From: an uncultured Rickettsiales bacterium
GTDB lineage: Bacteria; Pseudomonadota; Alphaproteobacteria; Rickettsiales; UBA1997
NCBI GenBank assembly: GCA_905478245.1
Contig: CAJQHT010000009.1
Span: 1-61,466, forward strand
Direction of reading: 5' to 3'
DNA: 61,466 nt
Every line of letters begins with the position of its first letter. The first letter of the stretch is position 1. Of the stretch, positions 1 through 5,180 are shown one piece after another. Made by a program: the position numbers and the translations under genes. Under the pieces are notes generated by a model. The model ran no database searches and was not told where the DNA came from. It worked only from the letters and a program-made list of their open reading frames with translations.

Positions 1-702
1 TAAAGGTTTAGTTGATTCATCAGGATTCGTTATATCATTTATTAATGTTTGATTTGGATTTCTAAGTTTTTCTGCTGTTTGGTGTATTTTTATATCCTCT
101 ATGATCTCTTCAAGAGTTTGATTTTCTAGATCTGGATTTTGAGTATAATTATTTAGCTTTATCTCCAGCACAGAATTAGGAGAAGCCTTTTCAACGTATT
201 CGGTTGGGTCAATAACAGTATCGGGCGTAAGAAAAATACTCAAACCACTTTTAGCTTCTACCCCTGTTGTATTATTAATTATTACATCAGTGGCATCCTG
301 ATTTATCCATGAAATATGAGAGTGAATTCCTGTACTTTTTCCTGTATTTCCTGTAACTCCTAAGATAGTTCCTTGTGGTACTGAAACCCCTGTCACAATG
401 CTGGAATCAATAGAGTCTAAATGACCATATACTATACTAGTTCCATTTTCTAATTTAACTGCAACAAAATTACCTAATGTACTACTGTTTCCATAGCGAA
501 TTACCTCTCCATTAAGCATCGAAATAGTATTGCGATCAGTAGCGCCTCCAACCCCAAAGTCAATTCCCGTATGAAATGCTGTTCTACCAGTTTCTGGATC
601 TGATCTAAAACCATAATTACTTGTTATGTTGCCATTATTTACTGGATTTAACAATCCCTCTAAGTTAAGTAATTCACCATTTTTTCCGTAGTAGTCCGCC
701 AT
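1..702 (-). CDS. M23-family Zn metallo-endopeptidase domain protein with C-terminal extension; runs off the window; no signal peptide; candidate antibacterial effector
   Basis: Manual translation from ATG at 702: MADYYGKNGELLNLEGLLNPVNNGNITSNYGFRSDPETGRTAFHTGIDFG...YGHL...GNTGKSTGIHSHISW. HxxxD and HxH M23 motifs present; frame open to the window edge; not in the ORF track. Confidence 0.9.
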   Translation of the reverse strand, partial: MADYYGKNGELLNLEGLLNPVNNGNITSNYGFRSDPETGRTAFHTGIDFGVGGATDRNTISMLNGEVIRYGNSSTLGNFVAVKLENGTSIVYGHLDSIDSSIVTGVSVPQGTILGVTGNTGKSTGIHSHISWINQDATDVIINNTTGVEAKSGLSIFLTPDTVIDPTEYVEKASPNSVLEIKLNNYTQNPDLENQTLEEIIEDIKIHQTAEKLRNPNQTLINDITNPDESTKPL

Positions 703-713
703 AGTTTCTTTAA

Positions 714-1472
714 TTATTTATTTAAATATGTTACTATACAATTTTCTGATCTCAGAAAAAGGTTTTCTTTATTATTGGAGTTATTACAATTTGCAGCCAA
801 AAGATTTTTGTTATTACTATTGATTTTTTTTAAACAAAATTCTGAACCATTAACTTTTATTACCGGCCGTTTATCAATATCATACATATATTCATATGTA
901 GCAAAATGTTGTCCGTTGTAATATATAAGATTTATGCGAAAAAAACCAAAGTCTATATCGCTCACTTTTAAAGAATCATCATGGTATTTGAACGCCATTT
1001 CCTTAAATTTGTAATAATTATGATTTTTACTATAACCTAAGTTATATTGCTCATAATCCTTTTCTTCATAAGCTATCTTGTACTTATTGATAAATGAGGC
1101 AATCAAGCAGCTACCCTTATCCTCAATGAGAAGTTTTTGATTTGTTAAGAATTTGTTATCAAATACCAGATCTACAACATTACCACTATTAACTTCTAGC
1201 AATAAATCTAAACCTTTATCTGTTTTAAGTTTATATTTCCCGTCTTGAAACCTTTTTGGAATCCAATCATTGGCTCCGGCACATTCAACGAAAGCTTTAC
1301 CATTAAATATATAAAACTTTCCCTTTTTAGACTCATTCAAACCACAATCATAAAATAGTTTGCGCTTACTTGAGCCAATCTCTCCAGTAAAATAATACTG
1401 ACTCCAATCTTCCTTAGCGCTAATTGGAAAACTAAATAATAAAAATGTAAAAATTAAAAATTTTAGCTTCAT
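714..1472 (-). CDS. Exported hypothetical protein with Sec signal peptide; putative immunity partner of the downstream M23 protein
   Basis: ORF track 714..1499; the internal ATG at 1472 gives MKLKFLIFTFLLFSFPISA-KED, a classic signal peptide. Stop lies 11 bp before the M23 start. Confidence 0.7.
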   Translation of the reverse strand: MKLKFLIFTFLLFSFPISAKEDWSQYYFTGEIGSSKRKLFYDCGLNESKKGKFYIFNGKAFVECAGANDWIPKRFQDGKYKLKTDKGLDLLLEVNSGNVVDLVFDNKFLTNQKLLIEDKGSCLIASFINKYKIAYEEKDYEQYNLGYSKNHNYYKFKEMAFKYHDDSLKVSDIDFGFFRINLIYYNGQHFATYEYMYDIDKRPVIKVNGSEFCLKKINSNNKNLLAANCNNSNNKENLFLRSENCIVTYLNK

Positions 1473-1622
1473 TTTGTTATAAAAATTATAATTTATCAAA
1501 TTTGCAAATAAGAATTATATCAGCTAATCTTTGAGCTGCTTTATCTCCATTTTCGTCTTTATTTTCTTCTTTACTAATAAAAACTTCTGTAATCAAGAGG
1601 TGAATTGATTATTTATCTAATA

Positions 1623-1680
1623 ATACCATTTTAACTTCTAAACATTTTAACTTTTAATTAGTTAAGTTGTTAAATGGTTT
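1623..1680. mobile_element. Short degenerate MITE, ATACCATTTTAACTTCTAAA subfamily
   Basis: The same 20-mer occurs at 61246 and in reverse at about 60229-60248; degenerate right arm TTAAATGGTTT. Confidence 0.55.
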
Positions 1681-1684
1681 TTTA

Positions 1685-1714
1685 ATTATAGCAAGTTTTG
1701 TTTTTTAACTACAA
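1685..1714 (-). promoter_or_regulatory. Putative sigma70 promoter of cassette 1
   Basis: Minus strand TTGTAG-N18-TATAAT with extended -10 (TGCTATAAT); similar sequence at about 3996-4035 upstream of cassette 2. Confidence 0.5.
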
Positions 1715-1743
1715 GATAAATCATTAATATTTTTTGCCCGTTA

Positions 1744-1770
1744 AAAACTGTATCATTTTGATACAGTTTT
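1744..1770. promoter_or_regulatory. Palindromic site AAAAC-TGTATCA-TTT-TGATACA-GTTTT
   Basis: Perfect 12-bp arms; the core recurs at 4063, 25443-25501 and 40077-40156. Confidence 0.7.
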
Positions 1771-1825
1771 GTTGAAGAAGATATTTTACTAAATTACTGA
1801 ATTTGTTATCTTTTTTGTTTTTATG

Positions 1826-1886
1826 AGACCTCTGCATAACTGAAGTAGTTTGGTTTTTGGTTAATTAATCAGTGTTGCATGAGTCT
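1826..1886. mobile_element. 61-bp AGAC-ended MITE (termini resemble Rickettsia RPE-1) truncating the adjacent ORF
   Basis: Imperfect 18-bp TIR AGACCTCTGCATAACTGA / TCAGTGTTGCATGAGTCT; it encodes the last residues (RLMQH*) of ORF 1869..2903. Confidence 0.6.
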
Positions 1887-2903
1887 TTTTATTATAATTA
1901 TATTATTTATTAAACTTGCTATGCCATCTCCTGTTGTAAATAATTTATTAGCTTGATTCATATAACCATCTACAAATTCTTTTGTTACATCTGCTGCTTT
2001 TTCTGTCATTTCTACTACGGCAGAAAGTAATGCTTTGGTGCCGTCTTTGAGAGTAGTCATTACTCCTTCTTTTTGAATAGTGTTTATATTGCCATTACTA
2101 TCCTCTACTGTAAATATTGCTTCTTGCTGTGATATAGCATTACCATTTTTATCTATATATTCTGGATTTTCTGCTAATAATCCTGAGTTTTTTAATGGAT
2201 CTTCTTGTTTATTTCCTTTTGATAGGGAAAATTCATCTTCGTTTATTTTAATTTTAATAGATTTGCTATCCTCTGAAACTAAAGAACTGTTAGAAATAGC
2301 ATCCTTTGCTATTTTGTCATTCGAATCTAAAAAACCTTCTGTTTGAATAGATATACCATCTTTATTTTGAGAAATTTCTGCGCTTGAAGATTGGCCATCG
2401 GGGGAGATTTGAGTTATAAGTGAATTTTGCTGATCATTTAATATGTCTTTTGTGTTGGCAATAGCTCTATCAATACCAGCCCCAATCTTTCCAATACCCA
2501 TTCCAACATTTTGGGCAATTTGGGCATATAATCCTCTATCAACATTGCTTAGTAAAATTTCCGCCTTATTATCTCCAAATAAACCAAATGTTTTGGATGA
2601 CACTTGAACCATTTTATCAACAACATATTCTAGAGTTGGACCGGTATATGCTTGCAACACAGCACCAGTTCCCGATGTTAATTTTAAGGTAAATTCTGAA
2701 ATATTTTGATTATCTGTTTTTGTTTGATTATAGATTAGATTATAATTAGTAACAACATCCATTCCAGCAAGAAACTCTCTTGTCTCAATTGAAATTAGAT
2801 TATTTTCATAGGCATATTGCTGACCTTGATATAATTTATCTCCTATCCAATTTAGAGTTTTGTCTAATTTGCTTTCTTGGATATTATTATTTGTGTTAGT
2901 CAT
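1869..2903 (-). pseudogene. Probable 3'-truncated remnant of a larger signal-less protein (putative effector)
   Basis: 344-aa ORF with no signal peptide; the stop codon lies inside a MITE; it starts 8 bp after the Sel1 lipoprotein gene. Confidence 0.55.
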
Positions 2904-2911
2904 ATTTTAAT

Positions 2912-3766
2912 TTATTTAATGGTATTGTTAAATTTAATATTTTCTACTTTTTTTAAAGCTTCATTCATATCTGGCACGAAATCAGGGTTTTCTTTAAGCC
3001 ATTTTTTGATTCTAATTTTTGCCTCTTCTATCTGAGACTTAGTCATAAAAGATTCTAATTTATCTAAAATTTTTTGAGCTGTTTCCTGATTTTTCCTTAT
3101 ATCAGTTCCGTGACCATCATGATATGTGCCATAGTTATTTTTTTCAAGAAAAAACCATTTATAGGCTTCTGGGAAATATTTTGGCACTTTTAAATCTCCG
3201 TGCTTGCCTGTAGAATATGCAATCCCTAAAGAAGCATATCCTGCAATACTTCCATACAAAGCAGCCTCTCTTGCCATTTCCCAAGATTTTTCGTAGTTTG
3301 GATTATTAAGATTTAAAGCTTTGGGCTGAATTCTATAAGAATTAGACATTGCGATATATGCACCCCCTATATCCTTTTTATCATAGATTTTAATTAATTT
3401 ATTAAATTCTGCTTTTGCTTTAGCATTTCCGTTTAAATGAGAAGAGTATAAAAATGACAATACATCATCTCTTTGAGATGGATTGCCATCTTTATCAGTT
3501 GAAAATTGACCTATCATCCCCATCCAATATTGAGCATCAGCATTACCATTTTCTGCAAGATTTTTGCATTCATCTAGATAGGGATTCCATTTTTTAAGTT
3601 CAAAACTTAATTTATGTTCATCTTCTACAGCTTTATGATAGAATTCTTCACATTTTTGAATTTTCTCATCTATTGATAGATTAGCAATATTCTCTTTTTT
3701 ACTACAGGCAGATAGTATTATTAAAAAAGATAATATTAGATAAAAAAAAGACTTAATTAGCGACAT
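2912..3766 (-). CDS. Sel1-like-repeat lipoprotein (putative immunity protein)
   Basis: Lipobox LSAC; SLR-type motifs AENGNADAQYWMG, ASLGIAYSTG...EAYKWF, and the C-terminal MTKSQIEEAK typical of Sel1 proteins. Confidence 0.8.
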   Translation of the reverse strand: MSLIKSFFYLILSFLIILSACSKKENIANLSIDEKIQKCEEFYHKAVEDEHKLSFELKKWNPYLDECKNLAENGNADAQYWMGMIGQFSTDKDGNPSQRDDVLSFLYSSHLNGNAKAKAEFNKLIKIYDKKDIGGAYIAMSNSYRIQPKALNLNNPNYEKSWEMAREAALYGSIAGYASLGIAYSTGKHGDLKVPKYFPEAYKWFFLEKNNYGTYHDGHGTDIRKNQETAQKILDKLESFMTKSQIEEAKIRIKKWLKENPDFVPDMNEALKKVENIKFNNTIK

Positions 3767-4062
3767 ATTATTGATATTTTATTATGATTATTGGTATCAT
3801 TTCTAAATTTAATTATAATTATATTAATTTATTTAATTTTCATAACCATTATTAAACTACCACCATGATTTAAAGAAATTGATCCAAAAATCGATCAAAA
3901 AGAAACTTCTATAATCAATATGGTGATTGATTTATCTATTTTAAGATTACCTATAAATTAACAAAATTCTGCTGATTTATAAATAACCTCACTTAAATTA
4001 TTAATAGTTTATTTTTTAACTTACAACAAGAAAATATTTTATTAGTTATTATGATTTAAATA

Positions 4063-4079
4063 TGTGTCAAAATAATACA
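4063..4079. promoter_or_regulatory. Degenerate copy of the TGTATCA-N3-TGATACA palindrome
   Basis: TGTGTCA-AAA-TAATACA (15/17 including the spacer), with palindromic ATA/TAT flanks. Confidence 0.55.
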
Positions 4080-4082
4080 TAT

Positions 4083-4450
4083 GTAGGTTTGATCCTATGT
4101 GTTCGCCCGCTGTTCCATTTATCCTCGGTTGGCTACGGGCAGACACATAGGTCTGCCCCTACAATTGATCCGTTGTTTTTTTATTGTCAGTTTTCTTCTA
4201 GCGTAATAATTTATGTTGTAAAAGATGTTTAAGTTGGTTTCCGCTGGGGACGTAGAGCCTTAAGGTTGACGGTAATTTTCTGTTGCAGAAGATGCTTAAG
4301 CGTAAGGCTCTGCGTTCTTAAGATAGGAATAATGTAGGTTTGATCCTATGTGTTCGCCCGCTATTCCATTTATCCTTGGGTTTCTACTCAGCAGACACTT
4401 CAGGTCCGCCCCTATAATTGATCCGTTGTTTTTATGTCATTGGTTTTGGA
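4083..4450. repeat. Cluster of GTAG-type REP doublets (REPIN-like), two units about 251 bp apart
   Basis: The reverse complement of 4137-4162 is GTAGGGGCAGACCTATGTGTCTGCCC (GTAG + hairpin), paired with an inverted degenerate copy at 4083. The unit repeats at 4334-4415. A second IR ACGTAGAGCCTTA/TAAGGCTCTGCGT lies at 4250-4315. Confidence 0.75.
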
Positions 4451-4571: not shown

Positions 4572-5180
4572 TTATAAATTGATTATTTCTTTTCTTAATT
4601 CTTTAATGCCCATATTTTTATTACTGCTAGTTAGAAGAATTTTTGGATGTAAGGCTGGGAATTTTACTGATTCTTTTTCTAATTTATTTTTAATTTGCTG
4701 AAGCGGATATTCTTTCAATTCATCAATTTTAGTTAAAATAATTTGATAGCTAGCAGCCAGACTATCAAAAATATTCATCATTTCCCTGTCCTTATCCAAT
4801 AAACCTCTTCTGGAATCAATTAAAATAAAAATTCTTTTTAGATTGGTTCTTTTGGCAAAATATTCATAACTTAATTTATCCCAAGATGATATTTCTTTTT
4901 TTCCTACCTTAGCAAAACCATATCCTGGCATATCAACTAAGTTTAATTTTTCTTCTAATTCAAAGAAATTTAATTGTCTTGTTCTGCCTGGGGTTTTGGA
5001 AGTAAGGGCAATTTTTTGATTTACTAAAGCATTGATTAGGCTAGATTTTCCAACATTAGATCTGCCAATAAAAGCAATTTCTGGCACATAAGAGATTTTA
5101 ATTTGATCAAATTTGCAAGCTCCCATAATAAACTTACATTTACCTTTGAAGAAATTATCAACATTACTTACTTTAATCAT
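4572..5180 (-). CDS. engB: Ribosome biogenesis GTP-binding protein YihA/YsxC
   Basis: [29 protein letters not shown] motifs. Confidence 0.95.

Follow-up and report, generated by a model that had tools for sequence, protein, structure and literature searches.

The cassette array at the start of the contig

The window considered here is the whole stretch of 61,466 nucleotides (nt) at the start of contig CAJQHT010000009.1 (C9; G000:C9:1-61466) from the assembly of an uncultured Rickettsiales bacterium (GCA_905478245.1; the focal genome, G000), which comprises 67 contigs and 1.41 Mb at about 30% GC. Its first 4086 nt hold an array of candidate toxin cassettes, namely two minus-strand pairs of open reading frames (ORFs), in each of which an exported protein is followed by a signal-less protein. 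Such a layout of four ORFs in two same-strand pairs had been proposed in an original prediction, and all four are present on the minus strand, with ORF344 beginning 8 nt after the lipoprotein gene and the M23 ORF 11 nt after the gene for the signal-peptide protein. An N-terminal hydrophobic segment is present in both upstream proteins and absent from both toxin-like ORFs. The features of the array are as follows.

1..702 (-): M23 ORF, 5' part (residues 1-234 of 457), with the M23 endopeptidase domain and a linker; open at the contig end
714..1499 (-): signal-peptide protein, likely start ATG at 1472; adjoins the M23 ORF upstream; candidate immunity protein without known family
1500..1583 (-): relic of a tail-and-stop junction from a former toxin-head ORF; abuts the start of the signal-peptide gene
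1869..2903 (-): ORF344, a complete short toxin-head ORF with a head (residues 1-216, predicted helical), then module A, then a tail of 20 residues
1932..2255 (-): module A (ORF344 residues 217-324), a segment conserved across all cassettes and giant proteins; proposed recombination handle
2912..3766 (-): lipoprotein of 284 amino acids (aa), plausibly of helical-repeat (Sel1-like) fold; candidate immunity protein directly upstream of ORF344
3789..4086 (-): conserved non-coding leader upstream of the first array gene; common to four cassette loci

The M23 domain, described in the original prediction as intact, is recognized by Pfam (PF01551; E=3.6e-14 and 53.1 bits against a cut-off of 28.7 for C9 1-702), and its HTGID and HSH motifs align with the corresponding motifs of solved M23 enzymes, for example with the zinc ligands HTGID and HLH of chain 3slu_A. 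Since the window begins at the contig start, the M23 ORF runs off the contig end. Its remainder could be recovered from a 457-aa protein of a large protein collection (P0001), which agrees with C9 in every one of the 234 residues encoded there (100% identity) and matches both M23 (50.7 bits) and LysM in Pfam. Beyond residue 234, P0001 continues through the LysM domain and its own copy of module A to a short tail and the stop, with the same final residues as a complete 348-aa ORF on contig C43 of the focal genome. Four runs of one marine metagenome study, possibly the source sample, contain 86-94% of the stretch (only 0.05-0.15 of it in runs X5-X20); public contigs of three of these runs reach exactly 471 nt beyond C9 base 1, and all four record a joint to C9 ~2045, inside module A of ORF344, as expected if the extension past base 1 ends in the repeated module A. 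Thus, P0001 and the 471-nt extension indicate that the M23 protein is complete, short and without RTX repeats. The metagenome scan contained no relative of P0001. The region shared by the two head ORFs lies between P0001 336-396 and ORF344 246-301 (52% identity, E=8e-12), whereas a weak motif resemblance claimed earlier to follow the N-terminal domains is part of no significant alignment. Pfam finds no RTX repeats (PF00353) in ORF344 or P0001, and nothing in the C-terminal parts and tails of the short ORFs.

The M23 ORF is not a short housekeeping hydrolase conserved in synteny, in agreement with the original prediction. In a genome of the same genus (G001, contig C21, locus L035), the syntenic site keeps the EngB and synthase genes and has unrelated genes in place of the array. 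The best M23 match of that genome to the C9 protein is 30% identical and belongs to a set of conserved M23 genes of ~400-500 aa, which are also present in the focal genome, on contigs C49 and C60.

ORF344 has no Pfam family, and an exhaustive search recovered only 25 proteins among 1.84 billion representatives. Residues 1-299 of P0022, a giant protein of 2462 aa with 31 RTX stretches, align to ORF344 1-317 at 39% identity, so the unknown head of ORF344 is also the head of a giant. The best ESM Atlas score for this head, 0.81, is under 0.9 and is a lead only.

The lipoprotein upstream of ORF344 has a lipobox, LSAC, at residue 18, and over its C-terminal half it shows homology to a family of exported proteins whose genes precede other toxin heads (hhalign, 97.9%). 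It had been called a Sel1 protein from its sequence; Pfam gives no match to the Sel1 repeat (PF08238) even at E<=5, and only TPR_27 at E=0.028. Its AlphaFold2 model is all-helical, with a mean predicted local distance difference test (pLDDT) score of 70.3, and the top 11 Foldseek matches of the model are Sel1-like repeat proteins (best E=5.1e-4, the only one at E<=0.001; TM-scores of 0.19-0.34). Given the missing Pfam repeat and the low TM-scores, the fold search lends weak support to the label, and a Sel1-like fold is plausible. The signal-peptide protein at 714-1499 has no Pfam or NCBIfam match and no relative but itself in 5.8 billion proteins, and its match to a partner gene on C43 is confined to the signal peptide. 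Its best ESM Atlas score is 0.82 (NTF2/SnoaL-like clusters), likewise under 0.9 and a lead only.

Paralogous cassettes and their exported partners

The focal genome has at least six cassettes (two on C9, two on C43, and one each on C56 and C33) in at least two arrays. Contig C43 (3514 bp) encodes, in order, an exported protein, the 348-aa ORF with M23 and module A, a second exported protein, and an M23 ORF that runs off the contig; the final 127 nt of C43 are the reverse complement of C9 1-127. On C56, a transmembrane protein is followed by a protein of at least 642 aa with Lipase_3, LysM and module A, cut at the contig end, and on C33 a transmembrane protein is followed by a head fragment of 100 aa only. 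Paralogues with differing N-termini and a common C-terminal module, each behind an exported gene, had been anticipated and are thus present. At the DNA level, the ORF344 copy of module A is 91.5% and 93.2% identical to the C56 and C43 copies, respectively, while the heads attached to these copies are unrelated. About 800 nt upstream of the C33 cassette is an ORF (G000:C33 21755-22558) with textbook Sel1-type repeats by eye. The exact product of C43 2199-2822 (P0007) is recorded on nine contigs, the longest of 25,273 bases, and a longer assembly of the C43-type array must therefore exist somewhere.

The cassette loci also have in common a leader of ~270 nt, which is AT-rich and contains internal inverted repeats. 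Its copies are at C9 3789-4086, C43 1-197 (L045), C56 516-814 (L044) and C33 22906-23142 (L048); the C9 copy is 87% identical to that of C56 and 79.5% to that of C33, and the first 197 nt of C43 match C9 3789-3985 at 99.5%. From its conservation, the leader may be a common promoter or operator; a promoter and terminator scan of C9 1-4600 gave 24 sites against 27.4 expected, which is not above chance. The array contigs have a depth of 4.9-8.2, compared with 5.75 for the flanking chromosomal contig (X1), the common leader being roughly twice as deep, with the proviso that the depth of public contigs is not a copy number. The array being as deep as its flank and the leader about twice as deep, we weakly reject the possibility that C43 is a mere strain variant of the C9 array, and weakly favour two loci over two strains.

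The borders between cassettes are alike. On C43, the stop of the 348-aa ORF overlaps the start of the next exported gene. C9 1429-1583 is 84% identical in DNA to C43 2100-2272, a segment that in C43 comprises the end of a live head ORF and the start of the next exported gene. The translated C9 relic, in the 1500-1868 gap and abutting the signal-peptide gene, carries the same tail motif followed by a stop. Thus, a junction of tail, stop and next signal peptide recurs at cassette borders. Just before the leader of the next cassette on C56, an RTX-repeat frame (L044, 3-425) ends in an aberrant, non-RTX tail, and looks like a truncated body left behind by cassette insertion.

To place the exported partners in a wider context, 23 cassettes from nine genomes were tabulated; these are hand-picked loci and not a census, and the giants of G013 and G001 (no clear upstream ORF) and G065 were omitted. 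The head is N-terminal and the partner gene upstream in all 23. An N-terminal hydrophobic segment is found in 21 of the 23 upstream proteins and in none of the 23 heads, and the intergenic gap is <=47 nt in 20. Clustering was done independently for the heads, trimmed ahead of LysM or module A, and for the upstream proteins, without their first 35 residues. Head type and upstream-protein type co-vary, with 17 concordant pairs against 2.0 expected and none of 10,000 shuffles as high. For example, one family of exported proteins precedes M23 heads in five of five cases; it has 15 database members, all unannotated, with four cysteines invariant in a 6-row alignment and two in an 18-row alignment. 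A complex prediction for the C43 M23 head and its upstream partner (6 and 18 rows) gave no answer, with a score of 0.00, and weighs neither way. Five of the six cassette M23 heads keep the HxxxD and HxH zinc ligands. The head of G133 (L039, G133:C33 449-1018) lacks the HxxxD motif and stands beside an intact partner gene, and may be an inactive head kept together with its partner. From their position, export signals and co-variation with the heads, we regard the upstream exported proteins as putative immunity proteins.

Giant RTX proteins and type I secretion genes in relatives

Module A, traced with a contig profile search that used a two-row alignment (A2), was detected in 24 of the family's 126 genomes, spread over 8 of 17 genera, and in 12 of 251 genomes from an even sample of the order (4 of 39 sampled families). 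The open frames that bear it in relatives are 1204-2705 aa long, and full-length giants reach 2300-2700 aa. They follow one layout, with a variable head, module A at residues ~270-400, one hydrophobic segment, ~30 RTX stretches along with Ig-like domains, and a tail at the C-terminus. The sole strongly hydrophobic stretch of each giant lies at ~480-620, right after module A. According to Pfam, seven giant-type proteins have between 9 and 38 RTX stretches each, with 24-38 in those five that are complete giants, together with He_PIG, Big_9 (Ig-like) or cadherin-like domains and serralysin-type C-terminal regions, and their N-terminal heads contain M23 and LysM (G004), a glucosaminidase fragment and LysM (G001), or nothing recognizable by Pfam. 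The ~400 N-terminal residues of these giants correspond collinearly to ORF344, the 348-aa C43 ORF and P0001. All three stop just after module A, within ~10-25 residues of the end of the homology; the short ORFs end at the junction and have no C-terminal secretion tail. The idea of an RTX-type architecture is therefore borne out in part, as it fails for the short C9 ORFs and holds for relatives, which fuse the same heads and module A to ~30 RTX stretches.

Genes for an ABC transporter, HlyD and TolC adjoin the giant in G022 and G013. The focal genome has a corresponding type I secretion system (T1SS) operon on contig C40 (8202-12837), which is 74-91% identical to that of G022. Its ABC protein is of the PrtD type (TIGR01842, 640 bits against a cut-off of 510), its TIGR01843 match is above cut-off at 412 bits, and its TolC, at 166.6 bits below the NCBIfam cut-off of 225, is 74% identical to the G022 TolC, itself a Pfam OEP match. 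Four RTX ORFs of the focal genome are all 5'-open at contig ends, and three have one common C-terminal tail; its motif is common to the giants and to the focal ORFs on C2, C38 and C64. The C2 ORF is 68% identical to residues 1128-2704 of the G022 giant. No HlyC acyltransferase match was found in five genomes, though the control also matched in 0 of 14 reference genomes, so that the negative carries no weight.

The fullest picture comes from the well-assembled genome G140, where, on one strand, the end of a giant is followed by a small exported protein and by a truncated head ORF (981 aa, 21 RTX motifs), and then come a partner of the M23 type, a full-length M23 giant of 2541 aa, an outer-membrane protein, TolC and an ABC gene. 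A tract of 1134 nt is common to the truncated ORF and the full gene at 95.7% identity, and their heads are unrelated. Arrays similar to that of G140 are present in G133, G086 and G136. The truncated ORFs of G140, G133 and G136 have the same end motif, whereas that of G086 ends otherwise.

The original prediction had left the route of delivery as a T1SS or the rvh type IV secretion system (T4SS). The first alternative fits, by way of the relatives, and nothing beyond gene presence speaks for the second. If the short signal-less proteins were delivered to neighbouring bacteria by the rvh T4SS in the manner of X-Tfe/X-Tfi pairs, module A or the tail would have to be the recognition signal. The focal genome does encode two VirB4 paralogues and VirD4, the short proteins, having no T1SS tail, would need another route if exported, and the immunity-first order resembles that of X-Tfi/X-Tfe. 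However, module A is internal to T1SS-type RTX giants instead of being a C-terminal domain, none of the loci examined has a cassette next to T4SS genes, and the tails give no Pfam match. We regard this route as very unlikely, and T1SS delivery as the most likely one.

The same domain content brings up a different function for the giants, that of self-anchoring RTX adhesins of the LapA type. The N-terminus would then be kept in the producer's envelope, with the heads binding or remodelling the producer's own wall, the partners restraining them, and the short ORFs being leftovers of variation in a host-attachment adhesin. Type I substrates leave C-terminus first, the N-terminus being last out, and some Rickettsiales relatives live attached to host cells; both facts suit an anchored adhesin, as do the Ig-like, cadherin-like and He_PIG domains, which are typical of adhesins, and the wall-binding LysM of several heads. 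An anchor is not expected to be so diverse, though, and the heads include a lipase and many unrelated folds. Head-specific exported partners, tandem displaced heads and near-identical recombination tracts are moreover hallmarks of conflict systems, and we consider the adhesin explanation unlikely.

A further explanation is decay, by which the short ORFs would be what is left of giant RTX genes that recombination broke up as the genome shrank, with no present function for them or their neighbours. All three fully known short ORFs lack the protein body, the junction relic in the C9 1500-1868 gap is degraded, the C56 3-425 RTX frame has its aberrant tail, and C33 keeps a head fragment of 100 aa only, all of which would be consistent with debris. 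Against this, the head ORFs are undisrupted and their M23 zinc ligands complete, the partner genes are likewise whole and retain their export signals, one junction recurs instead of random breaks, and several genera keep similar arrays, upstream of a full-length gene that is itself intact. We give decay little credence. It overlaps with the interpretation of the short ORFs as orphan heads, from which it differs solely in whether the pieces are still used.

Some observations concern the surroundings of the array. C9 4078-4500 is occupied by an element of ~100-120 nt in two or three tandem copies, which bound the cassette array; 4078-4200 folds to a strong hairpin (-37.6 kcal/mol), and public-contig depth peaks at 100-200x over the region. 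The element, which we take to resemble the palindromic elements of Rickettsia, has 29 copies of at least 80 nt on 12 contigs, six of them within 400 nt of a contig end. At the boundary of the EngB and synthase genes (C9 5001-5200), public-contig depth rises to 28-56x from 5-12x around it, and each of the four runs has loose ends at 5043 and 5076; the rise may reflect a conserved stretch common to other organisms, or a repeat. Finally, C9 7677-9533 is an ORF of 618 aa with a higher GC content (0.32-0.38), low-complexity ends rich in Ser, Ala and Pro, and no obvious family by eye.

Proposed mechanism and comparison with known systems

On balance, we think it fairly likely that the C9 array consists of cassettes of a polymorphic family of giant, T1SS-secreted RTX proteins, that its short ORFs are orphan heads which are swapped through module A, and that the family is put to antibacterial use. 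The short head ORFs of C9 would be displaced heads lying upstream of the secreted gene, and would stay inside the cell, as they lack the RTX body and secretion tail. Their partner genes would be retained as immunity against kin firing the matching head. Homologous recombination via module A could graft an orphan head onto the secreted gene and thereby switch the weapon. The full-length toxin would exit by the PrtD-type T1SS, its hydrophobic segment and RTX body would engage the target envelope, and its wall- or lipid-degrading head would act in the periplasm of another bacterium, a bacterial target being suggested by the M23, LysM, lipase and glucosaminidase-fragment content of the heads. The view of the C9 proteins as delivered effectors would accordingly be narrowed, in that their heads match those of secreted giants and the short forms, without RTX repeats or tail, are probably stored rather than fired. 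More tentatively, interbacterial T1SS giants whose N-terminal head is switched from a silent upstream library of heads and immunity genes may form an unrecognized class of weapon in reduced-genome aquatic Rickettsiales, a broader proposal for which we would put the chances at somewhat below even.

Several points weigh against this interpretation. Toxicity, immunity and secretion are predictions from sequence. The T1SS releases proteins outside the cell, and the proposed mechanism needs the head to cross the outer membrane of the target. The focal assembly lacks a full-length giant, and the region that directly follows module A is also missing from it, so that the link between head and RTX body in this organism rests on relatives, and the C40 T1SS operon adjoins no cassette on its contig. 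Co-variation of adjacent genes is also expected from plain co-inheritance, and both C9 pairs are exceptions to it: the M23 protein has a unique partner without relatives, and the head of ORF344 is not detectably related to the heads paired with its lipoprotein's family (hhalign aligned module A only, with a probability of 9.8%). The AlphaFold2 model of the ORF344 head (5-row alignment) has a mean pLDDT of 38.9 and no recognizable fold.

If the interpretation is correct, type I secretion joins the delivery routes of polymorphic toxins, and the cassette-swapping logic of contact-dependent inhibition (CDI) and Rhs systems operates in mirror image when the secretion signal is C-terminal. Small-genome, host-associated Rickettsiales would hold an arsenal against bacteria, which bears on competition in or on a shared host, and aquatic reduced-genome members of the order, usually regarded only as parasites of eukaryotes, would use an interbacterial weapon. 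The unannotated exported proteins are candidate inhibitors of M23 peptidases and lipases, and module A is a conserved module with a possible role in processing, in translocation or in recombination alone.

Among known systems, the X-Tfe/X-Tfi pairs of Xanthomonas and Stenotrophomonas are alike in combining periplasm-acting wall or lipid hydrolases with an adjacent exported or lipoprotein immunity gene. X-Tfe proteins carry a C-terminal XVIPCD signal for VirD4, whereas the conserved part described here is internal to T1SS-type giants, and the loci examined show no T4SS linkage. The giant RTX proteins of PrtD/AprD- or HlyB-type T1SS and the MARTX toxins resemble the giants in their nonapeptide repeats, their modular effector domains, a tail that ends in acidic and then hydrophobic residues, and adjacent ABC, HlyD and TolC genes. 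They differ in that the heads described here are, judging from their domains, aimed at the bacterial wall or lipid and not at cytosolic proteins of a host, are polymorphic with exported partners, and occur in C9 on ORFs without RTX repeats.

Within the Rickettsiales, accounts of the CRCT/CRCA modules of Rickettsia describe C-terminal modules on haemagglutinin-like proteins, with CDI/Rhs-like toxins and a downstream antidote (PMC9111745, PMC11077975). These are likewise candidate interbacterial toxins and antidotes, often cryptic or fragmentary and of uncertain secretion (T1SS or T4SS). The system described here differs from them by its N-terminal heads on RTX bodies and its upstream partners, and no sequence relation to them is seen. 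An RHS-like toxin without RTX repeats is described on an R. felis plasmid in another report (PMC4316617).

Other close parallels are the CdiA-CT/CdiI and Rhs orphan cassettes, as described in the excerpted portion of the survey of polymorphic toxins by Zhang et al. 2012 (PMC3482391). Both have a variable toxin domain on a conserved body with a tightly linked, specific partner gene, and displaced cassettes in tandem, in which a piece of the conserved body is retained as a handle for recombination. As in polymorphic toxins, unrelated heads are attached to a common module A in one genome, at 91-93% DNA identity. In the same portion of the survey, polymorphic toxins are defined by their C-terminal domains and RTX proteins appear only as host-directed toxins, whereas none of the 23 tabulated cassettes has a C-terminal toxin and a downstream immunity gene. 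The order here is mirrored, with an N-terminal toxin, an upstream partner and orphans upstream of the full gene, and the body is of the RTX/T1SS type, a route that this portion of the survey does not list for polymorphic toxins. In the open full-text literature, with subscription journals and supplements outside the search, we found no description of RTX/T1SS proteins whose polymorphic heads are N-terminal and which have upstream partners and orphan arrays. As far as this literature goes, we appear to have here an as yet undescribed variant of polymorphic toxins, a mirror image of the known ones built on a T1SS/RTX chassis.

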